DNA of 64,000 nt from a virus, in the IMG/VR virus record IMGVR_UViG_3300036772_000367, positions 32,001 to 96,000 of that record; one strand, given 5' to 3'. This document shows, in pieces, positions 6,976 to 39,586 of the stretch (position 1 is its first letter; each line of letters begins with the position of its first letter). Under the pieces are notes generated by a model that was not told where the DNA came from, did no database searches, and saw only the letters and a list, made by a program, of their open reading frames with translations. The position numbers were made by a program, and so were the translations under genes.

Positions 6976-8475
6976 ATGCCTGATAGCACCGACGTGCAAC
7001 GGCTGCTGGTGGAGGCAGCGAAGGCACCCACATTGCAGGAGACCCAGCGTCTGGTGACGGCTGCGGAGGATCTACGCAGTCAGTTGTACGCCGAGGCCGC
7101 AGCAGTACGTGACGTTGAGCTGGGCAATGCCCTGGTACTCGACCATCTACGACCGGTTGCCACCTACGAGCGACACAGCACTGCTACCGACTGGATCGGC
7201 GACCTGGTCACCAATTCCGATGCTCGGACCGCTTCTGCACAAGCTCAGGCCCGGGGCACCGTCTGGTTCAACAAGCTGGCCGCTGTGGTTGTGGCCGATG
7301 AGGACGAGTTCGTTCAGCAGGCCCTTGGCATGGCTCAGCGCATCGCGGGCCCCCATGGTGAGCAGGCCCCGGTCGTGAAGCAAGCCTTCCTGGATCACGT
7401 CGTTGCTCTACGACAGCATGATGCCATGTTGCATGAGGCCATCAATCCAGCTACATTTCCCAGCAATCTCAATGGCACCTATGAAGGAATGCCTGAGGGA
7501 TATACCACATCGGAACGCGCACCGGTCATCGAGCAGTTGGAAGCGAATGATGGCCCGAACGCGTCACAGAATGTTGTGCCCGTGAATGATCCGGGGCTGG
7601 GACAAGTAGACACTCAAGTCGAGCGTATCAACAATACCGATCTCGGCGGCCAGAACCAGCCCACCACCAACACGGCTGACCTTGGTCAGGACAAGCAAGC
7701 ATCTCGTCGGACAGTGCACAAGGAGAGCGGTATGCAGCAGGCACAGTGCCCGACCTGCGGACACGGTCGTGTGGCCGTGCGGCAGGCTCCGTTGCCCAGC
7801 ATCGAACAGATCATCCGCCAGGGTGTGTCGGGGCTGGACCAGATCGACCAGACCGTGGATCCCCACGACAACGGTGCGGCGCCCACCCCGTATCCTGCGG
7901 ACGTTGCTTTTCCCTGGACCATGCAGGAAGGCGCACAACAGCAGACCATCAATCAGGCCGAGCAGCAGATCGCGCAGCGTGAGCAGCAAAAGGGTGCCTC
8001 CCGGCGCATGTCCAAGCAGGAGGCCGCCAACTACGCCGCCCAGGAGGCGTACCGACAGGTGATGGCCGGTTACGACGCTTCTGGTTGGGCTGGCGACATG
8101 GGCGCCACACCGCCCGGTCCAGGCCAGCAGGATGGTGGCCCTGGTGCCGGCCCGGCGGTGAACCTGGGCTTCCCCGATCCGGTGTATGGCGAGGGCGGCG
8201 ACAACGGCAATCAGCCGATGCGGCCTTACGGCCAGGACGAGGCGAACGACTACACCAACAACCAGGGCATGAACTACACCCCTGGTCAGCCCACCCAGTA
8301 CGACACCCCCATCCAGACCTCCAATGCTCCGGCTGGTGGTGGCGCACCGGGCTTCCCGAATCCCCCGATCAACAACGGTGCCCAGCAGAAGAAGTCCTCG
8401 GTGGATACCGACCCCGAGCTTCAGAAGGCCCTGGCTTTCGTGCGGCAGCGTCGGGCTTTCCTGGAAGCCAGCTAA
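6976..8475 (+). CDS. head-associated/internal protein with Q/P/G-rich low-complexity linkers
   Basis: ATG at 6976 after GGAG; several basic-x-Ala motifs (RTA, HEA, KQA, RVA, RQA). Confidence 0.7.
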   Translation: MPDSTDVQRLLVEAAKAPTLQETQRLVTAAEDLRSQLYAEAAAVRDVELGNALVLDHLRPVATYERHSTATDWIGDLVTNSDARTASAQAQARGTVWFNKLAAVVVADEDEFVQQALGMAQRIAGPHGEQAPVVKQAFLDHVVALRQHDAMLHEAINPATFPSNLNGTYEGMPEGYTTSERAPVIEQLEANDGPNASQNVVPVNDPGLGQVDTQVERINNTDLGGQNQPTTNTADLGQDKQASRRTVHKESGMQQAQCPTCGHGRVAVRQAPLPSIEQIIRQGVSGLDQIDQTVDPHDNGAAPTPYPADVAFPWTMQEGAQQQTINQAEQQIAQREQQKGASRRMSKQEAANYAAQEAYRQVMAGYDASGWAGDMGATPPGPGQQDGGPGAGPAVNLGFPDPVYGEGGDNGNQPMRPYGQDEANDYTNNQGMNYTPGQPTQYDTPIQTSNAPAGGGAPGFPNPPINNGAQQKKSSVDTDPELQKALAFVRQRRAFLEAS

Positions 8476-9024
8476 GTGGCAACGCACTGGGTCTTCCAGA
8501 TTCCACAGCGCCATGTTGAGCGAGAACTAGTCGCCGCTCATGGTGATGGCTTCGCCACGTTCGCCGAAGGCGTGGCGAAGGGGCTCGGCACCAAGACCTT
8601 CCTGATCTGGCAGACAGTCGTGGTCATCCTCTGGATCACGCTGAACCTTGTCGGTCTCACCGTCTGGCACTGGGATCCCTATCCTTTTATCTTGCTTAAT
8701 CTTGGTTTCTCGACCCAGGCAGCGTACGCGGCACCCTTTATCATGTTTGTAGGCAATCGCCAGGAGAAGCGGGCGAAGATTCGGGCTGACATCGAGTTCG
8801 AGAATGATCTGCGCAATCGTGTATATATCACGGCCCTCTGCCATAAGTTGGGTGTGTCAGTAGAGGAATTGGAGAACGTGGTGCAGCAGGAGTTGACGTC
8901 GGTACGGGATCAAGAGGTCCAGGCCGACATGACAGCTCAGCCTCGGCACAAAGCCATCGTGGACTCCGCCAGCACCGACATTCAAAGCGCTGTCCAGGAG
9001 AAGACGGATAATGGGGCGACCTAA
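8476..9024 (+). CDS. DUF1003-family membrane protein
   Basis: WDPYPFILLNLGFSTQAAYAAPFIM signature. Confidence 0.85.
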   Translation: MATHWVFQIPQRHVERELVAAHGDGFATFAEGVAKGLGTKTFLIWQTVVVILWITLNLVGLTVWHWDPYPFILLNLGFSTQAAYAAPFIMFVGNRQEKRAKIRADIEFENDLRNRVYITALCHKLGVSVEELENVVQQELTSVRDQEVQADMTAQPRHKAIVDSASTDIQSAVQEKTDNGAT

Positions 9025-9190
9025 AAAGCCTCCTAAAAAGATCAAACGCCTGGAAAAACCAGCTACGACGGAGTATCAGCGGGAACAAGCAAATGAAATA
9101 GGCGGAGTGCGCGTTAGCAAGGCTGAGGCGCGGCGGCGAGAGAAAGATAAGAAGAAGAAAGATGATGATGCGGACACCGAAAAGGGATAG
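9011..9190 (+). CDS. small highly charged protein (59 aa, not in ORF track)
   Basis: MGRPKKPPKKIKR...KDKKKKDDD; AT-hook-like GRPK. Confidence 0.55.
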   Translation: MGRPKKPPKKIKRLEKPATTEYQREQANEIGGVRVSKAEARRREKDKKKKDDDADTEKG

Positions 9191-9194
9191 GTAA

Positions 9195-9566
9195 ATGAAC
9201 TTCCTGGCAGCGGCGATTCACTTGGCTGATGGTCTGTCCAGCGACATGAGCATGGATCCCGCCATGCAGGATGCCGCCCTACCCACGACCCGCACCTGGA
9301 CACAACCGGAGCCAGAGACCGACGAGCTGGATCCCGCCGCGCCGGGAGGTCCGTCACCGTACAACGGGGTCGAACCCTTTGGTCATCCAGTCACCACCGA
9401 TCAGGAGTGGCTCGATCCCAATGGCCGCAAGCCCCGTCGGTACGAGACGATGCCGCACATCAAGGGACCGGACGAGGACGTGGCCACCCTGCACGCTGCC
9501 ACGTTGCACTCAGCTCGGCGCAACTCCTACGAGGACAAGGCGGTGCGCTATGCCCGACGTAGCTGA
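9195..9566 (+). CDS. hypothetical head-module protein
   Basis: 123 aa, GC3-rich. Confidence 0.7.
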   Translation: MNFLAAAIHLADGLSSDMSMDPAMQDAALPTTRTWTQPEPETDELDPAAPGGPSPYNGVEPFGHPVTTDQEWLDPNGRKPRRYETMPHIKGPDEDVATLHAATLHSARRNSYEDKAVRYARRS

Positions 9567-9759
9567 GTCCGTTTCCGAGGAAGTCTGGGTTGCGACGCAA
9601 CAAAGGATCGCTGAAATCCTACGGACTCATCAGTTTGATGAAAGTCGCCTCGATGGTTACTGCTTCTGCGGTAATCCGATGGGTGATCAGGACGAACATC
9701 AAGCTGACGCTCTGATCCAGGATGGCATCGTCCCGCTGGAGAGGTCGTCCCATGGCTGA
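9550..9759 (+). CDS. small Cys/His protein
   Basis: H...YCFCG...HQA pattern. Confidence 0.5.
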   Translation: MPDVAESVSEEVWVATQQRIAEILRTHQFDESRLDGYCFCGNPMGDQDEHQADALIQDGIVPLERSSHG

Positions 9760-9967
9760 TGCGATAGGCGTCCGCAGGCTGACGAGGGACAACTTCCATG
9801 CTGTCGGTCGGTGGGCTCAGTCCGACGACTACTGGCCCCTGCACGCACCACGACCGGCTTTGTTCTGGTGGTCCGCACCACACGCAGTTCGTCGAGCCCA
9901 TCTCGGTGACATCATCGTTAAATGCGGCACATATGTGCTCATCCTTCATAGGAGGACCCGTGACTGA
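9752..9967 (+). CDS. hypothetical protein
   Basis: GGAGAGG RBS; overlap chain. Confidence 0.5.
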   Translation: MADAIGVRRLTRDNFHAVGRWAQSDDYWPLHAPRPALFWWSAPHAVRRAHLGDIIVKCGTYVLILHRRTRD

Positions 9968-11795
9968 TCTCTGGGTGGAGGCGTCGCGGGACGTCGAAGC
10001 CGAAGTGTTCGCGACCCGTATGGCGTACGCCAAGGTGGCGTCGGCATCCCTCTGGCCCTTCTTGGCCAGTGCCCAGAGTGACGGGGAGTTCAACCACCGG
10101 CTGGCGTTGTCCTACGAGACCCTCGCGGCCCGGGTTGAACCGGAACTCGTGGACTCCCTGGTGGCCTCCCTGCGGGAGGATTACCAGTCACTGCGGCCGT
10201 CCACAGCAGCGTCCACAGGAGTAGGGCCACTGACGCCCGGCAGTACGCCCCACAGCCCCCAGTTCACGGTGACGTCCTCGTCGAACGTGACTCTCACCGA
10301 TCCCGTGATGCAGATGTGGCATGTGGGTTCGCAGAAATGGGTGCAGATCGTCGCAGCCGCCCAAGAATCTCCGCAGAACCCCAATTACATTCCAGCCCTG
10401 GAGGCCGGACCGGAAACTGGAGAAACAGGAACATTCCCACAAGAAGTGAATGGACCTGATCCCTGGAATCCCATTAACGGCAATCTGCCCTTGCCTCCCA
10501 GTAATGTCATCCCGCCGGCCAATCGTTTCCCGGCACAGCCACAGCAGTGGTCAGTGCCACCCAACGCCGGTTGGGTAGAGAACCCCATGCAGTTCGGGCC
10601 GTACCGGTCTGCCCAGCTCAGCACCCATGCGGACGCCAACACTAACCCAGTTCAGCAGATGCAGTCGGGGCCCCTCTCGTACACTGACGAGGGAGTAGAG
10701 ACGGGGACCGGGCAGAACCCGTATTACTTCGGCCAGGGTGATGAGGGACTCCAGAGCCAGGATGGTGGATTCCCGCCGGATCCTTCTCTGGCCGAGCCCA
10801 ACGAGCGGGTGGACATGTACCAGAATGCCCAGCCGAATGCCCAGTACATGGGCTATGAGCAGGGGTACATGGCTGCTCTCCACCAGGCCAATCAGTACAT
10901 CCACCCGGCCGAGGGTGGTGGGTTCAACGTCGTGCAGAAGGGCACTGGCAAGGTGTTGAGCCACCACGACTCCCAGGAGGACGCCGAGGCCAGCTTCCGG
11001 GCGATGGAGTGGCACAAGCACCAGGGTGTCCAGCAGGCGCCGGTCCAGTTCTTCGATGCGACCCTGCACCGCACCGCTGACCAGGGTATGGACAGCGGAA
11101 ACCAGATGGCCGGTAACCCGTACATGACCTCGGGTAATCAGCTCGCCCCGGCCAATCCAGTGCAGGCACCGCCAGCGATGCAGCAGGGTGGCCCGGGAGC
11201 CGAGGCGATGCCACCGATGGGCGCAGGAGGTCCTACACCGGGTCAGAACTCTCCCGGTGGTATGGGGCCCTCCGATCCTGGTGGGAGCGACGTAGCAGCC
11301 AAGACAGGGGTCGCTATCACCCATCTGAGTGCCGGACCCCCACCACGAGGTGGCTGGCTGCCCCGCGTCACGGCCCGGCAGTACCTGCGGCAGGTAGAAG
11401 CCGATGAGTACCGGGGTCGCCCCACCCGGGAGGACCCTACGGGTGCTGGTGACGACTACACGGCCAGGACGTGGGAGAACCAGCTCAACCAGAGCCCACG
11501 TCAGGACACCGAGGACCGTGGTGCCAACACACCGCAGCGTCCGCAGGAGCCGATCCCGACGATCTCCTCGTCGGATCGGCAACCAGCCCAGAACGATGAT
11601 GAAATGGACGAAAGGGACAGAGAGCGAGAGGCATCCCTGAACGTCTACAGTGGAATAGGACAAAACGGACCACCCTATCTGACCAGGGATTCGTGGCAGA
11701 CTTCCCCCCAGGGCGGCGCGGCGCAAAACTCGCTTTTGAAGATCATCAATGCTTCGGTTTCTCGCGCATTGGTTCAGACCAGAGGGGCACGTTGA
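9960..11795 (+). CDS. modular head/internal protein
   Basis: AGGAGG RBS then GTG at 9960 (MTDLWVEASRD); helical N-domain plus small modules separated by RSA/HQA/RTA/REA. Confidence 0.75.
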   Translation: MTDLWVEASRDVEAEVFATRMAYAKVASASLWPFLASAQSDGEFNHRLALSYETLAARVEPELVDSLVASLREDYQSLRPSTAASTGVGPLTPGSTPHSPQFTVTSSSNVTLTDPVMQMWHVGSQKWVQIVAAAQESPQNPNYIPALEAGPETGETGTFPQEVNGPDPWNPINGNLPLPPSNVIPPANRFPAQPQQWSVPPNAGWVENPMQFGPYRSAQLSTHADANTNPVQQMQSGPLSYTDEGVETGTGQNPYYFGQGDEGLQSQDGGFPPDPSLAEPNERVDMYQNAQPNAQYMGYEQGYMAALHQANQYIHPAEGGGFNVVQKGTGKVLSHHDSQEDAEASFRAMEWHKHQGVQQAPVQFFDATLHRTADQGMDSGNQMAGNPYMTSGNQLAPANPVQAPPAMQQGGPGAEAMPPMGAGGPTPGQNSPGGMGPSDPGGSDVAAKTGVAITHLSAGPPPRGGWLPRVTARQYLRQVEADEYRGRPTREDPTGAGDDYTARTWENQLNQSPRQDTEDRGANTPQRPQEPIPTISSSDRQPAQNDDEMDERDREREASLNVYSGIGQNGPPYLTRDSWQTSPQGGAAQNSLLKIINASVSRALVQTRGAR

Positions 11796-12487
11796 TGTCC
11801 GCTCTCTCACTTCCTCCACCGACCCCCATCCTGTGTCTGGGATGTGGTGCCACCGGTTCGGTGGATCGAGTCACAGCCCACCTGCAATGCCAGTGTGGCT
11901 CGACCGACCTGGACCTGTACACCGCGTCGCCCGAGCAGCAGGCCCACATTGCCGCCCTACGTCCTCCCCAGCGTCCTGGCTCGGTTTCTAAGCCAGTTCC
12001 CTTCGCTCAGTGGATGACAGGCCGTGTGGCGATCAATGAAGGGCCACAGCAGCAGCGTCGGTCTCCCGTCGGTACCGAGATTCCCGGCTGGAACGAGTAC
12101 GCCGGACCCAAAGCGTCCCCGAACTCGATGCAGAACGGCATCGGCACCCCGTACGTCTGCCCGGTGTGTCATGGCACCGGCTTTGACCTCCAGGACGGCG
12201 GCACATGCCGGATGTGTGGTGGCGCGAAGATCATCACGCCGAACGCGGACGAACACCAGGAAGTACCGGCGGTAGCTCGGCATGACTATCCGTCCAATCA
12301 GACACAGGTGCCCTTCCTGGGTAAGCGCAAGTCAAAGAAGACCACCACGAACAACACCACGACGAAGCAGAACTCCAATCCGCTGGCGACGCTCGTGGCC
12401 ACCATCCAGCACAGTAATCCAGGACTGTCCCGTGCCGCAGCGCTAGATCTGGCGCAACGCACGCTGCACTATGCGGGGAGCCGCTGA
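11795..12487 (+). CDS. Zn-ribbon protein with DnaJ-type CxxCxGxG
   Basis: CLGCG...CQCG and CPVCHGTG...CRMCGG. Confidence 0.65.
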   Translation: MSALSLPPPTPILCLGCGATGSVDRVTAHLQCQCGSTDLDLYTASPEQQAHIAALRPPQRPGSVSKPVPFAQWMTGRVAINEGPQQQRRSPVGTEIPGWNEYAGPKASPNSMQNGIGTPYVCPVCHGTGFDLQDGGTCRMCGGAKIITPNADEHQEVPAVARHDYPSNQTQVPFLGKRKSKKTTTNNTTTKQNSNPLATLVATIQHSNPGLSRAAALDLAQRTLHYAGSR

Positions 12488-12490
12488 CCC

Positions 12491-13039
12491 ATGAGCATTC
12501 TGCGTGAGGGACGCTTGGCCACCTATATCGGCGAGGGTGATGACTTCGGTGCGCAAGTCGAGGTGCTCTCACTGGAGAACCGCGCGGCGTGGGGGAGATT
12601 CGTGACCGGCGCACGCACCGGAGAGATCGAGCTGATCGAGGACCTCGATCTCACGCCGGCCGAGCCACGCTCACGTTATGCCAGGCTCGACCCTGTTGTG
12701 GTTCCCGTTTCACCCGTGAGCGCCCCTGTGGTGGTCATAGCGGCCCGGGATGACCTGGACGACTCCTTGGACGTTGGGTTGCCCTTGCGGGTGGGTGTAG
12801 CTCAGGTACAGCACACGCAAGGCACTCTGGGTGTACTGACCATGCTGGCCACTCGGGGGGATCTCCAACGGTTGTCCACTGTCGTGGACGAGGCGTTCAT
12901 GGTGGTGGCCAACCGCATCCGCCAGGATCCCAATGTCCGCACCGTCATCGCACAGCTCGACGACGAGGATGCCGAGAACCTGGTGCAGATGGCATCGTTG
13001 ACGTTGTTGCACTCGGCCTTCGGAGAGCAGCGACAGTGA
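12491..13039 (+). CDS. hypothetical protein
   Basis: 182 aa in operon. Confidence 0.7.
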   Translation: MSILREGRLATYIGEGDDFGAQVEVLSLENRAAWGRFVTGARTGEIELIEDLDLTPAEPRSRYARLDPVVVPVSPVSAPVVVIAARDDLDDSLDVGLPLRVGVAQVQHTQGTLGVLTMLATRGDLQRLSTVVDEAFMVVANRIRQDPNVRTVIAQLDDEDAENLVQMASLTLLHSAFGEQRQ

Positions 13040-13710
13040 CGTTGATGCTGCATGTCGCCACGTCAGTCGAGGATCACGTCGACCGACTGGTAGCGGGGAC
13101 CGATCTGGAAGGCAATGAGAGTATGCGTAAGCACATTGCCAAGGTCGTCGCGACTGTGCCTGAGCAGCATCTGGCGACATTGGGCAGCATCTCTATCAAG
13201 CCAGACAAGGACCCTAATACGCGCGGTCGATACCGGAGCCGTGGCTATTCGGCCCGTACCAAGCAACCCGTTCCCGCATCTATCACCTTCACGCCGCATG
13301 TGGTGAACGATGAGAAGGGGTACCACTCAGAGATTCGCGACTCTGAGAAGAAAGGTTGGCTGCGACGGACAGGTTTGCCAGGCGTGCAGGCGACCTTGCA
13401 TCATGAAGTAGGTCATCATCTCTATGATGCTATGAATCAAAAGCAGCATGATGCCATGTGGACTGAGGTTGGGGCACAACCAGAGTTCAAGCCACCCAAT
13501 ACTCGTAGTGCCCAACCCATTGGTCCGCGCTTCATTCGTAGTAATCGATCCAATATGGTCAATCAAGTCGGTGTATATGGCGCATACAATGAACGTGAAG
13601 CTGCATCTGAACTGTATGCGCAGCATCACGGGAAGTATCCCACTGAGGCATCACACATTGCATTTCGCCATATGACGGGAGGGACCGATGAAGATCCCGG
13701 GGCCTCGTGA
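13036..13710 (+). CDS. zincin-like metallopeptidase (HExxH)
   Basis: LHHEVGHH plus downstream YGAYNEREAASELY. Confidence 0.75.
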   Translation: MTLMLHVATSVEDHVDRLVAGTDLEGNESMRKHIAKVVATVPEQHLATLGSISIKPDKDPNTRGRYRSRGYSARTKQPVPASITFTPHVVNDEKGYHSEIRDSEKKGWLRRTGLPGVQATLHHEVGHHLYDAMNQKQHDAMWTEVGAQPEFKPPNTRSAQPIGPRFIRSNRSNMVNQVGVYGAYNEREAASELYAQHHGKYPTEASHIAFRHMTGGTDEDPGAS

Positions 13711-15877
13711 AGTCGGTGCGGTACTCGCTGGAGTATTGAGCGAACCGCCCTCGCTTGCTCGTGATCGTGCGCTGGCCATCCTGAGTGGAGAGGCACACAC
13801 GGCAGCCACTATCCCAGCCGGTTGGGAAGGCGCGCAGGGACCGTTCCGTAGTGACTACAACGAGCCGCATGTCTACGCTCGTGACATTCATTCCGGCGCC
13901 GGTAACTGTGTCTGCGGTGCTGGATTGCAAGAGCGAGTTCATCTCCAAGCAGCTCCGGGTGTAGAGATACCTGACAGAATGCGCACCACAGCATTCCCTA
14001 CGAGGGAGTGCGATAACTGCGGCGGTAGGATGTCACCTCGGTGGCCACGTACCAGACTCGATGATGGACGAATGGTGTGCCCCATGTGCGCTCAGAACGG
14101 GCCGCGTACCGCTGTGATCATGCCTAAGGAGTGGCTGAATTGGGCACGACAGCCGCGACTCGCGGGCCTCTCTCCTCACGATCGTGAATGGCATCACGGG
14201 TGGGATCTGGGATATGACCACGGTCGTGCCAGCGAGCCAGATCTCAGTGAGAGGGATCGAGCGTTTCACCGCTCGGCGCACAAAGAGCAGTTCTCCCAGG
14301 GATACTCTCATGGACTGCATTCCGGTCTGGATCAGACGACATCTTCGTCCACCACATCCGTGGTCGCCGTGCGGGATGACGGACAACTGCGGGTGCTGGC
14401 TCATGACTCTGGTTCGGTGGAGGTCATCTACCACTGCTTCGCAGGAGAGACGCGCTATCTCACCAAGGAGGGCACGAAGACCTTCGCTGAGACTGCGGGC
14501 ACCGTTCAAGAAGTGTTGACCTCTGCGGGTATTGCCAATGACCGTGGTCGGTGGGCGGAAGCCATCATCCATAGCTTCGGTCCGCAGCCAGTCATGACAG
14601 TGCGACTACGTCGCAACAAGGTTGTTAAAACCATTCGCGCCACACATAACCACGAATGGAACATTTTGGGTCGTAATAAGGCCCATCGTGTGGTGACCAC
14701 TCAGGATCTGAAGCCTGGTATGCGGATGGCCCACCTGCGAGCGCGGGGATACTTCTATGAGCCTGAGCATGAGGCTATTCGCATGGGCTTCGTCTTCGGT
14801 GATGGCGCTATTCTGCAACGTCCCCAACAGACATATGGTGTGGCAGTTCTCTGGGGGCCGAAGCGAGATCTGGCCAAATACTTTGATGAAGTATGTACGA
14901 CCGCCCCCCGGGAACGCACCACGATCAATGATGTACCGGGACTGGCATACACCTCCGGCATGGTGGGCTACACCAAAACACTGCCCCCGTTGACGGCACC
15001 ACTGGAGTACCTGCACGGCTGGTTGATGGGATACTTCGCCGCTGACGGCTCGGTCACTAAGACCAACATCAGCATGACGTCTTCAGTGCTGGAGAACCTT
15101 CAGCACGTGCGGGATGTAGCTATCCTATTGGGTATCGGTACTTATTCCATTACCTCGAAGTGGCGCACTGGGTTTGGTGTGACCTCGCAGATCCACACAC
15201 TCGGTTTTTCGGGTAAGGACATGGGTACGTCATTCTTCTTGCGGCATGACCATCAGGATGCCTACGACCTGCGTGACGAACGAGGCACCAATGACCGTGA
15301 GCGTTTCGGGTGGACAGTCGATGCCATTGAGGACACTGGTGAGGTCACCCCCGTCTACTGCGCTCGCGTACCGGAGACCGGCACCTTCGTGCTGGAAGAC
15401 AACATCTGGACCCGAAACTGTCCCTTCTGTGGTTCTGGTCAGGTGATCGCGCGTTCGGATGGCACTGTCATGTGCGAGTTCTGCAACTCTTCCTTCACCG
15501 TGCAGGTGCAGCCGGAGTTCTCGGCGTTCCCCCAGACCGTCGATGGTCAGCCGGTACAGATTCCTGGTCTGCCACCCGACTCCAACCAGGACGCGGGTGG
15601 TCTGCCTCCTGATGAGGGTGCACCAGGCGACCCCACGGCCGAGGACAACGTGCCGAACGATGCTGAGGAGAACGGCCCGCCCGAGGACGGCGACAACACC
15701 GAGGACGAGCCCATCGACTCCGGCGGCAATCCCTTGTTTAACAAGCACTCCTACCGCACCGCTTCGGGTCATGCCCTGTCCGAACTGGAGTATGTTCGTC
15801 ATCTTGCCTTGAAGATCACTCCCGACCGGAAGAATGTGCTCGCACGTATCCGGTTGGAGAGAGCAGCAGGTGACTGA
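13688..15877 (+). CDS. modular Zn-ribbon head protein containing an intein
   Basis: Several CxxC pairs; spliced extein junction reads IYH-CPFCGSGQV. Confidence 0.8.
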   Translation: MKIPGPREVGAVLAGVLSEPPSLARDRALAILSGEAHTAATIPAGWEGAQGPFRSDYNEPHVYARDIHSGAGNCVCGAGLQERVHLQAAPGVEIPDRMRTTAFPTRECDNCGGRMSPRWPRTRLDDGRMVCPMCAQNGPRTAVIMPKEWLNWARQPRLAGLSPHDREWHHGWDLGYDHGRASEPDLSERDRAFHRSAHKEQFSQGYSHGLHSGLDQTTSSSTTSVVAVRDDGQLRVLAHDSGSVEVIYHCFAGETRYLTKEGTKTFAETAGTVQEVLTSAGIANDRGRWAEAIIHSFGPQPVMTVRLRRNKVVKTIRATHNHEWNILGRNKAHRVVTTQDLKPGMRMAHLRARGYFYEPEHEAIRMGFVFGDGAILQRPQQTYGVAVLWGPKRDLAKYFDEVCTTAPRERTTINDVPGLAYTSGMVGYTKTLPPLTAPLEYLHGWLMGYFAADGSVTKTNISMTSSVLENLQHVRDVAILLGIGTYSITSKWRTGFGVTSQIHTLGFSGKDMGTSFFLRHDHQDAYDLRDERGTNDRERFGWTVDAIEDTGEVTPVYCARVPETGTFVLEDNIWTRNCPFCGSGQVIARSDGTVMCEFCNSSFTVQVQPEFSAFPQTVDGQPVQIPGLPPDSNQDAGGLPPDEGAPGDPTAEDNVPNDAEENGPPEDGDNTEDEPIDSGGNPLFNKHSYRTASGHALSELEYVRHLALKITPDRKNVLARIRLERAAGD
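14435..15418 (+). mobile_element. intein with LAGLIDADG homing endonuclease (328 aa)
   Basis: Starts CFAGETRYLT; block B ATHNHEW; MGFVFGDG and LMGYFAADG; ends VYC...FVLEDNIWTRN followed by Cys. Confidence 0.9.
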
Positions 15878-23392: not shown

Positions 23393-23433
23393 CTGTCCTG
23401 CGTGGCGCAGAGAGCGCCTCTGGTAAGGAGTGA
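23393..23433 (+). promoter_or_regulatory. putative late promoter motif (degenerate spacing)
   Basis: CTGTCCTGCG...TAAGGAGTGA upstream of 23445. Confidence 0.4.
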
Positions 23434-23444
23434 AGGAGGCAATC

Positions 23445-30100: not shown

Positions 30101-30555
30101 TGAGCGAATTCCGCGAGGATCACCCCGAAGTGCCGACGCGCTATACCAACAACCCCTTCGACCCCTACTACGGCGACTCCAACGACACCGGCCAGGATTC
30201 CATTGGTGACACTGAGGATTCCCTCTCGCCCAACTCCGTCACGGCCGCTGGACACGCGACCACTCATGATGCGTCGGTGGCCGACATTGTCGCCCAGTTC
30301 CAGGCCACTGCCGCCGCAGGCCAGCTGATGACCTCAGGTGGTGCGCCCACTAACGACGGCATGAACATCGCCGCCGCCGCACAAGCACACCTGCGTAAGT
30401 CAGCGTTGAAGGACTTCAACTTCCATGAGCAGCAGGAGTTGATCAACGAGGGGGCGCGTGACCGAACACGGGCACGCAACATGGGAGACTTGCGCATCGA
30501 GGGAACGCACTACGAAATGCTTCCTGACGATGAAGACGCCAACTTGTTCGTCTGA
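24187..30555 (+). CDS. 2122-aa polyvalent protein: Zn ribbons, ParB/Srx, two ART-like modules, zincin peptidase, SWIM finger, Nudix
   Basis: PPLVLV...VADGHHR (about 25.0-25.15 kb); IYR...GDWVTTS...HEW (about 25.7-26.1 kb); HEGGHH (27028); CGC...CSH (about 27.7 kb); YLRFG...GVSVY...DGEPLL (about 28.7-29.1 kb); GGHIEPGD...REWEEEVG (about 29.3-29.4 kb). Confidence 0.85.
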   Translation: MVVWHPSDRLYATAEVAEGDRNPSGVKPLTSDLPEQQFEGDGGPPPCPYCGHPEFKELPSNGRADRAQCAQCGGMVYSVNGSQWQPELIGDPSNHPSSAADPASGGVGGAANSEVLMNQGPVRTHDDSQLRNSLSSLVKTADDDQCPRCSGDMTDTAPDRCLDCGYTQPTRVSDNPPQHSGQRVALLHTALSWDEIGDRHPHVYGDSEIHGDAADGADGPGIGSAANYLAHETPEDPDGEGHSEHELEFRARTVHPRHIDYSPSGSDDYRVKRAREGYQTQPEMMPPLVLVKRHNVYQVADGHHRAEAAASLNQPVRAYIADSPYPDTPFRDGEIGPFHHAEPIEAEHHTAAKPRPSKSFPNGKRHGIEITDGAYPDESGIVQCDNCGKYHSATYDHEGQHHEGPIHAVTCPQDGMTDYYTNERLEPREAALNDEVPWCAHLYHGNCTYPGDKLPNGTILGIPQDRGPCPWKHSAFQQAACPISAPGPMAVMTVTAESHTADGDYRMQHQAPDADYGAPLHDVEEMMPDFYTHPHYYNTGQEHFWDSANKIIKARGNPEKKVQIYRSLPADYAHEGFHTGDWVTTSKDYAREHGKATEDKGSEHDWPIISTRVPAKHLHTEGDVHEWAYNGPEKPFGHTVSFPGGREQQIRQRADGTVQRVKHRPVDPLNAQGYSFSHHMLNENSDNPAHQVTAYGPDENYAGHHRVDAQGTVESHVEPEHEHMADPLRERMANEVTKRMASLHVGIEEMQRIAIFDGEEQWHLTAVTAGAHDSDTEMKGFGLDPLHEDDDYATLHHKFSQHYRILDHVYASGNEAHPDDVDAADAIDRHHRDHDVPPITDSTYGDALPHQMASVAAQMMVNKRADHRRLDHPTVTMERIPAKDHASGDFKQGSVLGDYQHDISHIRLDPYVLANAEINREEHAPQSDARGWHVPAGNANPWQTTISHEGGHHREMSLTSQQRASMFRDISHTIPGVTPYTEKRATEHGLNKWHNANYAHLINHVGTYAAKNYRELAAELYSEHRHADNPSLAAQTAGRHLEGRFDDDNNEQRGFAGEFGEASSYGAQRRTGSGHREGHLTVGGVQAEGSLTFCTDTEEMQRVAALDKEGQWHLTASWADVKDKAKLIRAGGGVRIAVASMDGIGGEVQGEHHVYETLLTFVPGSYKVGSWQCGCKWAAYAWGRSPAYRRFEGRMCSHALAMQYEAQARGMFGRTVQEDRERPHWLKPHSPVVVQYERPSEKHPQGIDLTRRAVPPGNMRTTFGSKEAAMEPAQLIALAVLTMCDHDPVRAIPSLGLYGFDHRTAQLLIKQATEHEDAESLSVPPLRLEQLHPEPMRSTASKRCPECSASVSSSALTCPECGANLADVPELHEASWQDEEQRCPHCGGYLGPTAFKAGRCPHCGHALSHREGAYEPGLHNTQDARMNTEAPDWGTDHLVPCDQCRGQGCGHCGGTGNVVQMNGVTGSPVPDQSEGAGDVMRQDGLAWGDPISMGAVLAAHEDDPTYLRFGSWPKDERSRNNITGFPEEGVSVYDLDHRGEPKDPDANFGRLHEHHEHCDPDCDLDSWNEDYGNDTLEEMRGRVHRAERTRYNGNENHSDTGHLVKGEMAGIGHDGEPLLKNVRRVGDWIDHRHLFFPQAERHRLARDPYDEDYEEPKLNKRSAKKQESHAPSVAGVALKAADTGRVLMLQRGLEDKKDPAAGTWEFPGGHIEPGDKTSLHGAMREWEEEVGQPFPDGGVVHHVWTSPNGVYQGHVVVIPAERDLTMHDGRVMTNPDDPHGDHAEQAAWWQVEHARKNPALRPEVKQNTPWKQLANAGMQKEADYAANDALSGGGPEVHTPTDAPQHSNSTNPASTGYATSWDPNGWNGEEPFGGRDDVPMAGYSASLAPIIEPRYSYQPPQAVASVLGQWGQGQTPVVFERAARTLATLHDEPEPALPSTDGGDERMKPINHLHHGIPHNDQGTMPYGYDDLSEFREDHPEVPTRYTNNPFDPYYGDSNDTGQDSIGDTEDSLSPNSVTAAGHATTHDASVADIVAQFQATAAAGQLMTSGGAPTNDGMNIAAAAQAHLRKSALKDFNFHEQQELINEGARDRTRARNMGDLRIEGTHYEMLPDDEDANLFV
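26428..27534 (+). repeat. 57-bp imperfect direct repeats (26428-26484, 27478-27534) bracketing the peptidase module
   Basis: EEMQRIAIFDGEEQWHLTA vs EEMQRVAALDKEGQWHLTA; shared GAGGAAATGCAGCGG and ACAGTGGCATCT. Confidence 0.85.
27320..27460 (+). CDS. nested out-of-frame 46-aa ORF (peptidase partner candidate)
   Basis: GGAGGGG RBS at 27309; LQESLAKLVHMEPSAERDQAIAKV resembles the N-terminus of gene 13688. Confidence 0.5.
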   Translation: MTTITMNSADLQESLAKLVHMEPSAERDQAIAKVISQLEECRQKGL

Positions 30556-33970: not shown

Positions 33971-36463
33971 GTGCTGCGGAAGACCGCTGTCTTTGATGTC
34001 CTGGATGTCATCCAGGCGCATGATATTGCGCGACAGACTCCTCTAGGGCCGATCAGTCGCATCGGTCATCGACATGTCTTTGATTTCGAGCCTCGGTATG
34101 GCTACCTCTATGTTCGTAGCCGGATGATTTCCTCGCGGTGCAATGATAACTTCGATGAGTTCCCCGCCGAGGAAATCAAGAAAGCCTACGCCACGTTCGT
34201 CGGCAAGCCAGTCTTCGTCAACCACAATAACGATGATCACCGTCGGATGCGTGGTCTGATCATCGATGCCGTGCTGCACGAAGATCGTAACCCAGATGGC
34301 TCCCCAGACACCTGGGTCGAGGGCCTGATGGAGATCGATGGCCTGCGGTATCCCAAGTTGGCCAAAGCACTCATCAAACGGCACATCGAGCGCACCTCCA
34401 TGGGTGTGGACGTTGAGTACTCCATCTGTTCGAAGTGTGGCAACAAGGCCACCACACCACTGGAGTACTGCCGCCACGTGCCGGGCATGAAGGGCAAGCG
34501 CATCTACTCCTTCACCAAGTCTGGTGCCAGGGTCAGCGAACTGATCCGGGAGAAGTGCTACGGGCTGGGGTTCTTCGAGAACTCCCTGTTGGTCGAGCCA
34601 CCAGCAGATCCAACTGCCCTCTTTTTGGACAAGCCCATCCTCGGTCCTGGACTGGAGCACCTGGCCATGACGGCATCGGACCGTTACCTTCAGCGTATTG
34701 CCTCCGTCGCGGCATCCTTTCGTCTGGTAGCTGGGATGCGCTGCGTGGCATGTCGGGGTCTGAACACCGTGGCCGACCTAGAGGGGCACCACGAGTGCTT
34801 CGACTGTTCGGCGGCTTGGAACTCGCGTACCGCTTCTCTGGAAGTGGAAGCGGCTCCGCGTTACGCCGATCCTGCCCAACATCCTTGGTTCCAGCAGCAC
34901 CCGCTGAATCACCAGAACATCGTGGATCATTGGCATCAGGCCACTCCCGACGAGCGTACCCAAGGAATGCATTGGTATTCTGATGCGCATATTATCGGGC
35001 AGGCTCTCGGTGAGCACCATGAAAAATCGCATGGTCTTGTGCACCCGCAGGGTGCATCACATCTTGGTGCGGGCATTCTTGCGACCTACTCGCCTCAGAT
35101 GGGTTGGGCAGGCAATATGCACAATGCCGCCCGAGTGTTGCACGGCAACAAGGGCATCGGTGGACCTAATTCCGGCATGATGGCCAGTACCCATCAACGC
35201 GTCGCAGCCGACCGCATTCTCAACGGTGAGAACTACATGGATGTGCTCAAGGGTCCGAAGATCCAGGACTTCGCGCACCTGATCGAGCATGGTGGGGACG
35301 CTGATCCTGATCATCCTCATGTCGTGGTAGATCGTCATGCACTCTCGGTTGCCGCTGGTCATCGGCTCACTGATGAGCAATACGGTAAGGCTCCTACTTC
35401 GCAGCGGCACTACTACGGCCATGCCGTGCAGCAGTACCATCACGCTGCCCGTGAACTGTCCAACGAGGAGTCCAGCCCCGTCGCTGGGCATCAGGTGCAG
35501 GCCACTACCTGGCTGGTCCGTCAGCGCCTCAATCAGGCCGAAGAAAAGGCTCATGCCCAAACAGGAGCCGACACACGATTGGACCGAGGACGCGATCGTG
35601 CTCGGGGCAATGCGGAAAAGAAGTGGGAGGACTGGCGCACGGAGAACCTGCCTGATCTCCAACACAAGGGACCAGGCACCGGCTATGTCGCGCGACGGCG
35701 CAGTGTGGCCTATGGCGAGACGAAGGCCCCGGCCGACGTAGACACCCTACGCGAGGAAGCTTGTCCGGTTTGCGGTGAGGAGAACGCCTACGACGGCACC
35801 GAGTGCAAGGTCTGCGGTTTTGTCGCGCCACCCAAGGAATTCCAGGATCCTGACCTGGAGATGGCCAAGCGCGTCGACCTGCGCAAGGACGTGTCCGATT
35901 TGAATGGTGCCGACGTCTCCGATCTCAACGAGGATCTCAACGACGTTGACAAGGACGGACTTGACGACGAAACCGGGGAACCGGTCGACGGTACTGGCCC
36001 TGGCGACGTGCAGCCGACGTTGGTGTGCAACAACTGCGGCACCGAGTTCGAGGCAGGCGAGCCCATCACGACCGACACACGTGATCCGCAGGCTGGTGAC
36101 GCGGGACTCGGCCCCGACGAAGGTGACGTCTGCCCGGCCTGTGGCAAGGGCATCTTGGAAGCTCCCAACGATCTGGACGTCTCTCCACAGGACGACCAGA
36201 ATCGCTCCGAGCCCGAGGACCCTGACCCGTCTGCTCAGCAAACACCTCCTTTCTCGCGCGATCGCGGCGAAGAAGATGAGGATGAGAACGAGCAGAATGG
36301 GCAACCAGACAACGACGAGGACCCCGACGCCCAGGAACGCAACTTCGTGCCGACTGACGAGGATGGGGATCCTGATGATGATGGCGACAATGACGAAGAC
36401 GCCATTCCTCCGCGTAAGCGCAAAGGCACGCCTGCTCGCCAGGACCGGAACCCCTTCAAGTGA
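33971..36463 (+). CDS. prohead (capsid maturation) protease fused to an internal cargo domain and an acidic Zn-ribbon tail
   Basis: FVGKPVFVNH...TSMG...FENSLLVEPPAD (HK97/assemblin-type His, Ser, Glu); lies upstream of scaffold and MCP. Confidence 0.85.
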   Translation: MLRKTAVFDVLDVIQAHDIARQTPLGPISRIGHRHVFDFEPRYGYLYVRSRMISSRCNDNFDEFPAEEIKKAYATFVGKPVFVNHNNDDHRRMRGLIIDAVLHEDRNPDGSPDTWVEGLMEIDGLRYPKLAKALIKRHIERTSMGVDVEYSICSKCGNKATTPLEYCRHVPGMKGKRIYSFTKSGARVSELIREKCYGLGFFENSLLVEPPADPTALFLDKPILGPGLEHLAMTASDRYLQRIASVAASFRLVAGMRCVACRGLNTVADLEGHHECFDCSAAWNSRTASLEVEAAPRYADPAQHPWFQQHPLNHQNIVDHWHQATPDERTQGMHWYSDAHIIGQALGEHHEKSHGLVHPQGASHLGAGILATYSPQMGWAGNMHNAARVLHGNKGIGGPNSGMMASTHQRVAADRILNGENYMDVLKGPKIQDFAHLIEHGGDADPDHPHVVVDRHALSVAAGHRLTDEQYGKAPTSQRHYYGHAVQQYHHAARELSNEESSPVAGHQVQATTWLVRQRLNQAEEKAHAQTGADTRLDRGRDRARGNAEKKWEDWRTENLPDLQHKGPGTGYVARRRSVAYGETKAPADVDTLREEACPVCGEENAYDGTECKVCGFVAPPKEFQDPDLEMAKRVDLRKDVSDLNGADVSDLNEDLNDVDKDGLDDETGEPVDGTGPGDVQPTLVCNNCGTEFEAGEPITTDTRDPQAGDAGLGPDEGDVCPACGKGILEAPNDLDVSPQDDQNRSEPEDPDPSAQQTPPFSRDRGEEDEDENEQNGQPDNDEDPDAQERNFVPTDEDGDPDDDGDNDEDAIPPRKRKGTPARQDRNPFK

Positions 36464-36467: not shown

Positions 36468-36502
36468 GATCCATCCATTCATGGTGAAGGAGTAGATTAG
36501 CC

Positions 36503-37366
36503 ATGCGTCCAGCCCTGGCTGCTCTCGCCGAGCAGCAACAGCTCATCGAAAATCTTCGCCGTCAGGCTCACATCCTGAACAAGGCGTCGGTCAAGCAGGA
36601 AGGCCAGATCACCAGTCTGGCTCGCGGCCTGCAAACACTGGCCGCGCTGGCAGGAGTAGATCGGCACGTGGCGGCTGCCATGCTCGGCCGCAAGGTGGCG
36701 GACATCCAGAACCCAGCCCAGCCGGTTCCCGAGCCTCCGGCTCAGCCTTCGCCGCAGGGCACGGAGGACGCCAAGACGCCCGAGGCGTTCGCTGATGTGA
36801 CCGCTCCTGGTCTGGCCCCTGGCACCACAAACGACGTCGCGGCCGATGCCACCACCACGGCCTACACGCCTGGCATGGATATCGGTGCCCCGGCGTTCAA
36901 GAACCTCATCGATGTCACCGCACCGGTCGAGGGCACTCAGAATCCTCGTCCGTTGGAGGAGACCAAGACCCTCACCGACGTGCGCGTGGGCAATCCGATG
37001 AACCCTCAGGTGGCTTTCCCGCTGCGGGGCGACTTCGCCAATGCTCAGCGCACGAGTTCGGCGCGAACCTACGCCTGTTTGCGTCTGGCCCGGTTGCAGA
37101 TCGCAGCTGGATTGGTCGAGGGCCAGACCGACATCGAGATCGCGACCGGACTGGAGAAGAACGCGGAGTTGTCCCTGAACTCCATCGAGGCCGAGATCGG
37201 TACGTTGGAGCGCGTTCGTACCGCAGCTCGTCGTCAAGGATCTGCCGCTTCGCGCCGGTTGGTTCCCCGTACCGCTGCCCAGCGGTCCGCACCTTCCCTT
37301 CAGGCCGTGGCTTCCCATCAGGTAGCTGCATCGGTGGGTGACAGCGACGAGGATCTGTTCCTGTGA
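36503..37366 (+). CDS. putative scaffolding protein
   Basis: Between protease and capsid genes; coiled-coil and Pro-rich; ends DEDLFL. Confidence 0.6.
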   Translation: MRPALAALAEQQQLIENLRRQAHILNKASVKQEGQITSLARGLQTLAALAGVDRHVAAAMLGRKVADIQNPAQPVPEPPAQPSPQGTEDAKTPEAFADVTAPGLAPGTTNDVAADATTTAYTPGMDIGAPAFKNLIDVTAPVEGTQNPRPLEETKTLTDVRVGNPMNPQVAFPLRGDFANAQRTSSARTYACLRLARLQIAAGLVEGQTDIEIATGLEKNAELSLNSIEAEIGTLERVRTAARRQGSAASRRLVPRTAAQRSAPSLQAVASHQVAASVGDSDEDLFL

Positions 37367-37390
37367 CCTGGTCGTCTGATCGGGGGCGAT

Positions 37391-37759
37391 ATGTACGTCA
37401 GTCGTAAAGAGTTTCACTCCGCTCTCGCCGCTGTGTGGGAACAATTGGAACAGTTCGAAAGCGCCCTGAAACAACAACTGGAGAAGGAAATGACCGACTT
37501 CACTACTGCACTGTCCGACCTGGATTCGGCTCTGTCTTCTCTGGAGGGTGATGTCACGAACCTCCAGCAGCAGATCGCGGCCGGCAACCAGGCGGCTACT
37601 GCCGCTGCCGCTACCCAACTGGAGCAGCGAGTCGCCGGTATCCGTACGTTCCTGGCTGGTCCGCCGGCAACGCCGACCCCGACTCCGACAATCGGAGGCA
37701 CCACGACCACCGCTGCGTCGGACACGGGTACGACAACGACAACTCCGGCTTCCTCCTGA
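37391..37759 (+). CDS. small coiled-coil protein (alternative start 37490)
   Basis: Heptad pattern; Thr-rich tail. Confidence 0.6.
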   Translation: MYVSRKEFHSALAAVWEQLEQFESALKQQLEKEMTDFTTALSDLDSALSSLEGDVTNLQQQIAAGNQAATAAAATQLEQRVAGIRTFLAGPPATPTPTPTIGGTTTTAASDTGTTTTTPASS

Positions 37760-37778
37760 TCTATCACTAGCAATCCTC

Positions 37779-37816
37779 AACGGACCTCGGGCCTTGTGCT
37801 CGGGGTCCGTTGCTTT
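37779..37816 (+). terminator. stem-loop terminator
   Basis: AACGGACCTCGGGC-cttgt-GCTCGGGGTCCGTT then T-rich sequence. Confidence 0.7.
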
Positions 37817-37842
37817 GTTCTGTTCTTCTGGTGACAGTAATC

Positions 37843-37879
37843 CTGTCCAGGAATAGCGTTCTCCGTCACTAAGGGCTGT
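37843..37879 (+). promoter_or_regulatory. putative late promoter motif
   Basis: CTGTC-N22-TAAGGGCTGT upstream of the capsid genes. Confidence 0.55.
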
Positions 37880-37935
37880 AGAGAGGGAATCAGTCATGAC
37901 CCTCCGGTAAGGAACCCAACAACACGGAGGACTCC

Positions 37936-38469
37936 ATGCTCCGAGTTTCCCTCCAGAACGCTTACATCAAGCGGACCATCCGGCCGACGTACGCGTTCAC
38001 CCAGGCAACACCGAAGTCGATGTACCTGGACCCGAACTGGAACAAGTCGGTCGACATCTACCCAGGCATGGCCTTGATGAAGACCTCTGGTGAGAACGTC
38101 ACGCTCCTGGGTGGCAGCACCACCACGGCCATCCCGGTTGGTCTGTCGGCGTTTTACTGCGCTCCGACGTTCGGTATCGATGAGATCACCGAGCAGGGCG
38201 TGAATGCCTGTGCCTACTGGCACATGGCATCCGACGCTGAGTTCCAGATCTTGGCCCCTGCGTTCGACACATCGTTGAGTTGGACGGATCCCGGTGACGG
38301 CACGATCGTCAAGGTCACTGCGTACACCGCAGGGCCCAAGCGTGGTCAGTTGTGCCCCTTGGGCACGTCGGACGGCACCAATCTGCCGTCCACCATCGCC
38401 ATCGCGCGGCTGCTGGAAGTCAACTCGGCATCGCAGATCACCATCGGTGGTCTGACGGGCACCGTCTGA
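37936..38469 (+). CDS. capsid accessory/decoration protein
   Basis: GGAGG RBS; immediately upstream of MCP; strong codon bias. Confidence 0.65.
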   Translation: MLRVSLQNAYIKRTIRPTYAFTQATPKSMYLDPNWNKSVDIYPGMALMKTSGENVTLLGGSTTTAIPVGLSAFYCAPTFGIDEITEQGVNACAYWHMASDAEFQILAPAFDTSLSWTDPGDGTIVKVTAYTAGPKRGQLCPLGTSDGTNLPSTIAIARLLEVNSASQITIGGLTGTV

Positions 38470-38503
38470 TCCTGACCCCTACGAGAATCCCAAGGAATCA
38501 CGC

Positions 38504-39586
38504 ATGAACCAGGCTCTCGTTCATTCCGGGGTCAATGGTCAACTGTCGCGGCAGGCAGCGTATGCGCCTCCGCAGCAGCAGGTGAGTTACGCGCCACCGC
38601 AGCCCAACTACCCGGCCATGCCGAGCAATCTGTTGCGCAAGGCAGCCACGAAGTCCGACGACTACGTCGATCGGATTCTGCAACGCCGCGAGTCGGGCCA
38701 GAAGTTGGCGCACGCTGACAAGGTCCAGAAGATGGCTCTGATCCTCTCCGATGAGGTCAGTGGCATCAAGCGGCTCGGCGTGGGCATGATCGGCCCGATC
38801 CAGCTCAAGTTGCGCTATCAGGGTATTACGCGCAACGTGCTGATCGAGGACCCGGTCACCCCCGGTACTCCGGTCGAGTACGACGTGTGGGACGACCTGG
38901 GCCAGGCGTACATCATGTCCGGCCACGAGGGTGAAGTTCGGATCACCCCGTTCGAGGGCAAGCGCGTTCCGGTGCGGTTCTTCCGTATCGCCTCGCGGCC
39001 CGCGATCCGCAAGGAAGACCTGTTCTACCTCCGCATCAACGCGGTCGAGCAGGCCCAGGACGAAACCAAACAGGCGATCCTCAAGCAGGAGGACTCCCGC
39101 TTGATGGTGATCCTCCAAGCCGCCGTGAACGACTACGCCACCCGGCCCGACCACATCGTCACGCCGAACCACAACGTCATCGAGACCAGTGGTTACTACA
39201 CACCGGCGTCGCTGTACACCGCCGTCGCGCAGACCGACATGCACGAGTTGCAGTCCGCGCGGATCATGGTCAACCCCTACGACTACCGGGATTTCTTCCG
39301 GTGGGACATCAACACCACCGGTTGGGCCTTCAAGGACCGGGTTGTCGCGGGCGAGACCATCACCACCTTCGGTGAGTTCCAGTTCCAGCGCAGCATCATC
39401 GTCCCCCAGAAGACGATGTACCTGACGCCGGAGCCGAACTTCCTCGGTGTGTTCCCGGTGCTGTACTCGTTGGACGTCGAGGAAAACCACAATGTTGAAG
39501 CATTCTGGAAAGGATGGGTCTTCGACGAAATGGTTTCCATGGCAATCCTCAACCCCAGAGGGATTGCAACTGTGTCGAAGCCATAA
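38504..39586 (+). CDS. major capsid protein
   Basis: MIGPIQLKLRYQGITRNVL...AILKQEDSRL...KGWVFDEMVSMAILNPRG matches Bxz1/BRock-type MCP (recall); very high GC3. Confidence 0.9.
   Translation: MNQALVHSGVNGQLSRQAAYAPPQQQVSYAPPQPNYPAMPSNLLRKAATKSDDYVDRILQRRESGQKLAHADKVQKMALILSDEVSGIKRLGVGMIGPIQLKLRYQGITRNVLIEDPVTPGTPVEYDVWDDLGQAYIMSGHEGEVRITPFEGKRVPVRFFRIASRPAIRKEDLFYLRINAVEQAQDETKQAILKQEDSRLMVILQAAVNDYATRPDHIVTPNHNVIETSGYYTPASLYTAVAQTDMHELQSARIMVNPYDYRDFFRWDINTTGWAFKDRVVAGETITTFGEFQFQRSIIVPQKTMYLTPEPNFLGVFPVLYSLDVEENHNVEAFWKGWVFDEMVSMAILNPRGIATVSKP

Follow-up and report, generated by a model that had tools for sequence, protein, structure and literature searches.

A basic-x-Ala motif as the candidate processing signal of an assemblin-fold prohead protease in an actinobacterial myovirus

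Analysis of a 64,000-nucleotide stretch of viral DNA (hereafter the window; bases 32001-96000 of one 155,226-bp contig, IMG/VR virus record IMGVR_UViG_3300036772_000367, with genes almost all on the + strand) revealed that a short basic-x-Ala motif was overrepresented in the proteins of its head-gene block. The phage was a 155-kb actinobacterial myovirus, kin of mycobacteriophages Myrna and Bxz1, and the sequence evidence supported selection on the motif as a short linear signal, both in proteins of head assembly and in giant modular proteins. An Ala-specific prohead protease encoded in the same block probably processes capsid, scaffold and polyvalent cargo proteins. This protease would recognise [K/R/H]-x-Ala, preferably followed by Ser, Ala or Gly (optimum R/K-T-A↓S, the arrow marking the putative cut), and would cut after the Ala within the procapsid. 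The protease gene sat between the portal and major capsid protein (MCP) genes, beside a scaffold-like gene; the gene order was portal (16165), protease (33971), scaffold-like (36503), cement (37936) and MCP (38504), and the same order was found in two relatives (L022 and L023).

Motif enrichment in the head block and its replication

Two forms of the motif were counted, namely the form set by an initial annotation of the window, [KRH][TEQVSL]A, and a four-residue form, [KRH][TEQVSLIM]A[ASG]. The head block comprised the 25 proteins of 6880-39586, and expectations were obtained from shuffled sequences (global and local windows). All tetrapeptides quoted by the initial annotation were present in the genes to which it had assigned them (ten in the 2122-amino-acid (aa) giant, RRVA and RRTA in the portal, RKTA and SRTA in the protease, RKVA, VRTA and PRTA in the scaffold-like protein, and SRQA and LRKA in the MCP leader).

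The head block contained 78 copies of [KRH][TEQVSL]A against 42.2 expected (z 5.7-5.9), and the excess persisted when residues were shuffled only within windows of 30 or 15 residues (z 5.6 and 5.0, respectively). None of five order-permuted versions of the motif classes was enriched in the head block, and X-B-A was depleted. The tail set contained 30 copies (22.8 expected), 9 of which came from one 803-aa protein, leaving about 21 against 20 without it, and the early genes contained 5 (8.2 expected); the enrichment of head over tail and early proteins, suggested by eye for the tail genes in the initial annotation, was thus borne out by counting. The rest of the genome was close to expectation, both upstream (10,048 aa; 49 vs 47.6, ratio 1.03) and downstream (16,926 aa; 89 vs 76.2, ratio 1.17). 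The four-residue form showed a sharper difference, with 35 copies in the head block against 12.2 expected, 12 against 11.9 for its reverse, and 13/13.5, 8/6.7 and 20/20.2 (observed/expected) in the three other genome parts, which summed to 41 against 40.4.

Breakdown by residue showed a roughly two-fold excess in the head block for nearly every [KRH]-[T,E,Q,V,S,L,I,M]-A, so that the middle class of T, E, Q, V, S and L first proposed was enriched and at the same time too narrow, Ile and Met belonging to it as well, with K and F also occurring as the middle residue in MCP leaders. The turn-forming residues D, G and N were depleted in the middle position. After the Ala, Ser, Ala and Leu were favoured, and a small residue there sharpened the signal. 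All three positions varied within their classes, which argues for selection on the protein and not on a DNA word. The signal was distributed across many [KRH]-x-A variants, and an unbiased ranking of tri- and dipeptides within the window alone did not single out the motif.

The excess was concentrated in the proteins of 6880-8475, 9798-11795, 13036-13710, 13688-15877, 23430-23978 and 36503-37366 and in the giant, and the portal showed it in the four-residue form only. No excess was found in the head-block genes 20071-21180, 21180-23387 and 30567-31859, so that only some genes of the block were enriched.

The motif as set by the initial annotation was fixed before other genomes were examined. 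Myrna gp87-gp99 contained 56 copies against 25.4 expected (z 6.1), driven by gp87, gp96 and gp97, while the Myrna controls gave ratios of 1.26 (early genes) and 1.06 (gp102-113). In the C1 phage JayJay, gp94, gp102 and gp103 contained 39 against 18.2. The four-residue form was enriched 4.1- to 4.25-fold in these phages (24 vs 5.6 in Myrna, 25 vs 6.1 in JayJay; z 7.7 each). The Myrna and JayJay proteins shared with those of the window only short blocks (protease domain, SWIM-like domain and C-terminal domain), and the replication was therefore largely independent of homology; the cargo modules of Myrna and the C1 phages were mostly unrelated to those of the window. Across 120 homologues of the giant, the four-residue form occurred 744 times against 317 expected, and its reverse 314 times against 317. 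The Streptomyces relatives of about 150 kb (L003-L006) had a small SWIM/C-terminal protein in place of the giant, and their motif excess was weaker, yet visible in that protein, in the protease protein and in the scaffold.

These results bear on whether composition, post-hoc choice of the motif, paralogous repeats or a recombination joint at the DNA level could have produced the excess as an artefact. The residue classes had been picked after the data were seen, and one site pair (EEMQR[IV]A at 752 and 1102 of the giant) lay within a direct repeat. Composition was ruled out by the global and local shuffles, the order permutations and the whole-genome controls. Replication of the excess out of sample in two cultured phages, and recovery of the motif by unbiased k-mer discovery in the protease linkers described below, made an artefact of any of these kinds very improbable.

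The predicted prohead protease and its candidate capsid and scaffold substrates

The protease protein (33971..36463, + strand, 830 aa) consisted of an assemblin-fold domain (aa ~40-225), a variable linker, a Zn ribbon, DUF7178 (aa ~300-560, Pfam DUF7178 match) and an acidic tail with Zn ribbons. It was matched by PHROG 18299, "head maturation protease" (E 1.4e-21), and had no sequence match in the Protein Data Bank (PDB). An AlphaFold2 (AF2) model of the 830-aa protein had a mean predicted local distance difference test (pLDDT) score of 75.5, with a confident domain at 40-225 and a confident helical DUF7178 at 300-560. Foldseek on the whole model gave weak E-values, with probability up to 0.97, and a second look with VIA-align was therefore needed. 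Model residues 41-225 aligned with varicella-zoster virus (VZV) protease at Z 9.7 (root-mean-square deviation 2.6 A, 114 aa), and with the proteases of pseudorabies virus (PRV, Z 9.0), herpes simplex virus 2 (HSV-2, 7.8) and human cytomegalovirus (HCMV, 7.5). H85 (nt 34223-34225) and S143 (nt 34397-34399; T-S-M-G) were invariant in 60 homologues. The modelled fold together with the conserved His and Ser supported the assignment of the N-terminal ~225 residues as an assemblin-fold serine prohead protease, in agreement with the fold class named in the initial annotation.

Behind the protease domain, the linker (34658..34834, + strand) carried three candidate self-release sites, H230-L-A232↓M, R242-I-A244↓S and R286-T-A288↓S. 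In the AF2 model, pLDDT fell below 50 at 237-250, the span holding R-I-A↓S, and was followed by a Zn ribbon and then by R-T-A↓S at 286-288. Among 120 homologues the linker varied in length and sequence, yet contained 156 copies of [KRH]xA[ASG] where 26 were expected, and tandem copies such as G-L-E-H-L-A↓R-T-A↓S were frequent. An unbiased k-mer count of the 120 linkers gave RTAS 50 times against 0.5 expected, in 43 sequences, and RTA, TAS and RTAS ranked beside words of the aligned Zn ribbon. A self-cut in this linker would free the protease from DUF7178.

The MCP (38504..39586, + strand, 360 aa) matched PHROG 2522 (E 4.5e-101) and was 60.8% identical to Myrna gp99 from residue 37. Its leader contained R16-Q-A18↓A (nt 38549-38557, + strand) and R45-K-A47↓A (nt 38636-38644, + strand), the latter directly preceding the conserved T-K-S-D-D-Y-V body. 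Across about 120 MCP homologues the N-terminus read G-L-x-[GP]-[RK]-[VTI]-A-[KR]-K, with the conserved S-D-D-Y-V body immediately behind it; leaders of greater length, that of this phage among them, held a second [RK]-x-A, and the leaders of Myrna and JayJay held G-R-F-A↓K. The short leader would be removed by the protease, and mature N-termini are predicted at A48 in this MCP and at Lys16 in Myrna gp99.

The scaffold-like protein (36503..37366, + strand, 287 aa) contained 7 sites against 2.2 expected. The conserved sites (all + strand) were K64-V-A66↓D (36692-36700), R239-T-A241↓A (37217-37225), R256-T-A258↓A (37268-37276) and R261-S-A263↓P (37283-37291). [RK]xA stood at the same positions in five relatives; in six relatives, [RK]-x-A↓D before I-x-N-P-A-Q-P was kept, as were two or three [RK]-x-A at 25-45 residues from the C-terminus. 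Predicted cuts in this protein lie close to the C-terminus and downstream of the coiled coil at its N-terminal end. The protease and scaffold-like proteins were encoded by separate genes in the window, and in Myrna gp97 and JayJay gp103 the equivalent scaffold C-terminal part formed a fusion protein with the protease, in which R-T-A↓S/G lay about 20 residues from the end. Scaffold motifs had been reported in the initial annotation and were present in 36503-37366; the gene at 37936..38469 (+ strand) was found to encode not a scaffold but a cement (minor capsid) protein (Pfam Phage_cement_3, E 1e-37) without motif excess, homologous to Myrna gp98, which has been identified as a minor capsid protein (PMC7150772).

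The portal protein (16165..19251, + strand, 1028 aa; PHROG 2833, E 2e-137) carried R77-V-A79↓S and R82-T-A84↓T (nt 16393-16416, + strand) in a non-conserved N-terminal extension. The Myrna and JayJay portals also had [KR]-x-A sites in their own, unrelated N-terminal extensions, and the extension is possibly cut.

Giant modular proteins as candidate cargo

The polyvalent giant (24187..30555, + strand, 2122 aa) contained 18 sites against 10.5 expected. Several unrelated enzymatic and binding domains were joined in this one polypeptide: an N-terminal Zn ribbon, a zincin-like domain (aa ~906-1048), a SWIM-like domain (1097-1216), Zn ribbons, a NUDIX domain (1674-1806) and a conserved C-terminal domain (2020-2122), the NUDIX domain and the Zn ribbons being found by Pfam. 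The 120 homologues (1167-3105 aa) carried Pfam domains such as GNAT, Arr-ms, ParB, intein and ART-PolyVal in differing sets. Alignment with the giant of L022 showed conserved blocks parted by unrelated sequence, and five sites (1102, 1372, 1661, 1820 and 2071) were retained at block edges. The placing of the motif at module boundaries was clearest on both sides of the NUDIX domain, and 35% of sites kept the motif class in L022 against 19% for pooled control patterns.

Two of these sites adjoined the SWIM-like domain and a Zn ribbon. R1102-V-A1104↓A (27490..27498, + strand), directly upstream of the SWIM-like domain, was KVA↓R in L022, and [KRH]xA was found at its projected position in 55 of 107 homologues. 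H1372-E-A1374↓S (28300..28308, + strand) followed the Zn ribbon; LHEAS was matched by LHVAS in L022, where a large insertion came immediately after the site.

The NUDIX module (29167..29652, + strand) was flanked on both sides, by R1661-S-A1663↓K (nt 29167-29175) and K1820-E-A1822↓D (nt 29644-29652), which were kept in L022 as KQA↓S and KVA↓S. After the end of the NUDIX domain, K-T-A↓[AS] was present in 70 of 94 anchored homologues and control patterns in 4-23 of 94, and the sequence downstream of this site fell into 36 different classes among the homologues. On the N-terminal side, an A↓[AKSG]-K junction some 10 aa ahead of the domain marked where homology began. Cuts at such module junctions would divide the giants into separate pieces, for example a NUDIX enzyme of about 160 aa.

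The remaining site, K2071-S-A2073↓L (30397..30405, + strand), lay in the conserved C-terminal domain, where K-[STQA]-A-L-K-D-F occurred in at least 81 of 101 homologues and JayJay gp102 had RTA↓G at about the same place. This site may be structural rather than a cut site.

In a rival reading the motif is a selected signal that is never cut: scaffold, portal or protease might bind it as a docking or capsid-targeting peptide, or it might be a linker element favoured where domains end. Conservation and enrichment by themselves demonstrate selection and not hydrolysis, and some conserved copies, K-S-A-L-K-D-F in the C-terminal domain among them, lie within folded or conserved domains. However, several tandem copies in hypervariable linkers are not expected of a docking signal, nor are copies at both ends of cargo modules and just before a mature-looking MCP body, and a matching layout is seen in protease-scaffold precursors, with their release and maturation sites. 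An uncut signal was therefore considered improbable.

Cleavage by another enzyme was also weighed, the candidates being the zincin-like metallopeptidase module of the giant, its stand-alone paralogue at 13036-13710, or a host protease. The HExxH module was present twice in the window, and zincin-like peptidases have been proposed as processors of polyvalent proteins (PMC5512222). However, the module was present in just 13 of the 120 giants, on which ground it was rejected as the general cutter, and it was not found in the Myrna and JayJay stretches searched, where the motif excess was stronger. The motif also occurred on the classical substrates of a prohead protease (MCP leader, scaffold and the protease's own linker). 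Altogether there is little chance that another cutter accounts for the sites.

Several points weigh against processing of these proteins by the assemblin-fold protease. The excess was only about two-fold, so that roughly half of the individual occurrences are background and single sites on the initial list cannot be trusted unless conserved. The residue after the Ala (P1') was loose (S, A, G, K, D and even P). Some conserved copies lay within folded domains, namely P-K-L-A at 129-131 (protease) and H-Q-A at 322-324 (DUF7178), and these copies, perhaps with K-S-A-L-K-D-F, are probably structural. At the N-terminal NUDIX junction many homologues had H-L-G-A↓K, which has no basic P3. For the protease protein, no Pfam peptidase family was found at E<=0.05, and H85 and S143 are candidates for two of the catalytic residues; the third was not assigned, since H169 might instead bind Zn in an inserted CCCH knuckle. 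Literature searches for experimentally determined N-termini or virion proteomes in Cluster C gave nothing usable, and the Myrna capsid paper contains no cleavage data (PMC7150772).

Under the proposed processing, T4 and phiKZ-like phages suggest by analogy that the pieces of the giants would be packaged in the capsid and passed on to the host. Hints of packaging were the location of the giant among the head genes and the conservation of its N- and C-terminal domains only. Since the joint is a generic tripeptide, modules could be exchanged between phages without loss of processing.

A broader scheme is conceivable, and we hold it to be rather doubtful. K/R-x-Ala↓Ser would be a universal plug-in connector from a common ancestor of phage and herpesvirus assemblins, and any enzyme that it flanked, once inserted between the giant's conserved N- and C-terminal domains, would be packaged, freed in the capsid and injected. 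Cluster C phages and the ~150-kb Streptomyces phage-plasmids would thus carry an exchangeable, capsid-delivered counter-defence cocktail (NUDIX, GNAT, ADP-ribosyltransferase-like, ParB and glycosylase-like).

Further motif-rich proteins were encoded upstream of the portal gene (6880..15877, + strand). The observed/expected counts were 7/2.3 for 6880-8475, 6/2.2 for 9798-11795, 4/1.2 for 13036-13710 and 7/3.2 for 13688-15877, and proteins at the same upstream position gave 20/6.0 in Myrna (gp87) and 16/5.6 in JayJay (gp94). These proteins are candidates for further substrates or cargo. A further protein, the 803-aa product of 44438-46849 with a DMFA2_C (dimethylformamidase beta-subunit-like) domain, had 9 [KRH]xA against 1.9 expected and was left out as a substrate because 8 of the 9 sites were not kept in the L023 homologue.

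The zincin-like HExxH modules formed a paralogous pair, one in gene 13036-13710 and the other embedded in the giant at 26902-27330 (aa ~906-1048), with 31% identity over 143 aa. The 729-aa protein of 13688-15877 had a LAGLIDADG_3 match at aa 442-490 together with Zn-ribbon-like matches and might contain an intein or a module of homing-endonuclease type; intein Pfam domains were borne by several homologues of the giant.

Relation to known systems and neighbouring features

Herpesvirus assemblin cuts at (V/L/I)-x-Ala↓Ser, both behind the protease (release site) and close to the C-terminal end of the scaffold (maturation site). The phage system shares with herpesvirus pUL26/pUL26.5 the assemblin fold (Z 9.7-7.5), Ala at P1 and a small P1' that is often Ser, and candidate sites are likewise predicted behind the protease and 20-45 residues from the scaffold C-terminus. 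As in pUL26, a single polypeptide contains both protease and scaffold in Myrna and JayJay, while the window encodes them in separate genes. Unlike in herpesviruses, P3 is basic and not aliphatic, DUF7178 and Zn ribbons are inserted, and many non-scaffold proteins carry the site.

Phage T4 gp21 ([LI]-x-Glu) and the phiKZ gp175 (A-x-Glu) and SPN3US proteases follow x-x-Glu rules on many head proteins. For SPN3US gp245 the motif is A-X-E, with several copies in propeptides (PMC10052503). A three-residue rule common to capsid, core or scaffold, and internal or ejected proteins is suggested here as well by sequence comparison. Unlike in T4 and phiKZ, the motif ends in Ala and not Glu, the putative substrates are giant chains of swappable modules with internal junction sites and not mainly N-terminal propeptides, and the lineage and host range differ (actinobacterial, with a T=16 Myrna-type capsid).

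Polyvalent proteins were described by Iyer, Burroughs, Anand, de Souza and Aravind in 2017, who predicted their packaging and proteolytic processing (PMC5512222). Rare assemblin-like peptidases occur in such proteins and were expected to act as in virion assembly (PMC5512222). The giants of the present lineage resembled them in being multi-domain, in lying among late genes and in carrying NUDIX, GNAT, ART/Arr, ParB, zincin and Zn-ribbon domains in changing sets. The earlier work gave no cleavage motif and favoured zincin-like peptidases, whereas here a junction motif is common to the MCP, the scaffold and the protease linker, and the assemblin-like protease is a neighbouring gene and not a C-terminal domain of a polyvalent protein. 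The phages Myrna (C2) and Bxz1-type (C1) had homologous MCP, cement, portal and protease domain, homologous SWIM and C-terminal domains of the giant, and the same motif excess.

Multi-substrate prohead proteases with short motifs (T4, phiKZ, SPN3US) were thus already known, as was the prediction that polyvalent proteins are packaged and processed (PMC5512222). New is the proposed basic-x-Ala↓small rule for a large actinophage lineage; in the public records of Myrna (L001) and JayJay (L002), neither protease nor motif is annotated. New as well are the apparent use of the motif at internal junctions of swappable modules and the resemblance to herpesviruses in both the Ala↓Ser rule and the layout of R and M sites. 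A concrete cleavage rule is hereby proposed for the head protease of Cluster C, of which more than 200 mycobacteriophages have been sequenced, and it predicts which pieces of giant "hypothetical" proteins would exist as free enzymes in virions. The P1 Ala specificity and the site layout would tie the phage protease-scaffold proteins to herpesvirus assemblin, and a possible mechanism is offered for free module swapping in polyvalent cargo proteins.

Other features of the protease protein were also recorded. Its N-terminus (nt 33971-33988, aa 1-6) was a near-invariant M-L-x-K-[FY/T]-A, with K in 114 and A in 113 of 120 homologues, and might either be cleaved after its sixth residue or serve for recognition of the N-terminus. 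The best structural matches of DUF7178 (window 34871-35650) were 8-oxoguanine/AlkA-type DNA glycosylases (Z 7.8-6.5, weak for a helical fold). DUF7178 without the protease was found on chromosomal contigs of Lentzea, Amycolatopsis, Actinophytocola and Umezawaea (loci L007, L009-L017, L020 and L021). In the Myrna record, gp97 (the protease-scaffold fusion) was noted as "tape measure", and JayJay gp94, gp102 and gp103 were each noted as "hypothetical protein".

Among the neighbouring genes, a coiled-coil protein was encoded at 37391-37759, between the scaffold-like and cement genes. An HNH/DNA-binding endonuclease-like gene (39726-40928; PHROG 1271 and 14913) stood directly after the MCP gene and was absent there in L022 and L023. 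The tail genes, among them sheath, chaperone and baseplate genes, began at about 42 kb.

Closer relatives (80-93% MCP identity) were metagenomic contigs, each about 150 kb long. The MCP was about 60% identical to those of Bxz1-type C1 mycobacteriophages, as it was to that of Myrna, and more distant relatives were found in phages of Gordonia and Rhodococcus. Relatives of the protease protein also occurred on ~150-kb contigs of Streptomyces and Kitasatospora assemblies. Relatives of this phage (loci L003-L006) appeared as separate contigs of ~150-157 kb in many such assemblies, and one of them has been deposited as a complete plasmid (NZ_CP191269.1, 151,251 bp, "plasmid pRLB1-9.1"). These plasmid-like relatives suggest a phage-plasmid or carrier-state lifestyle.

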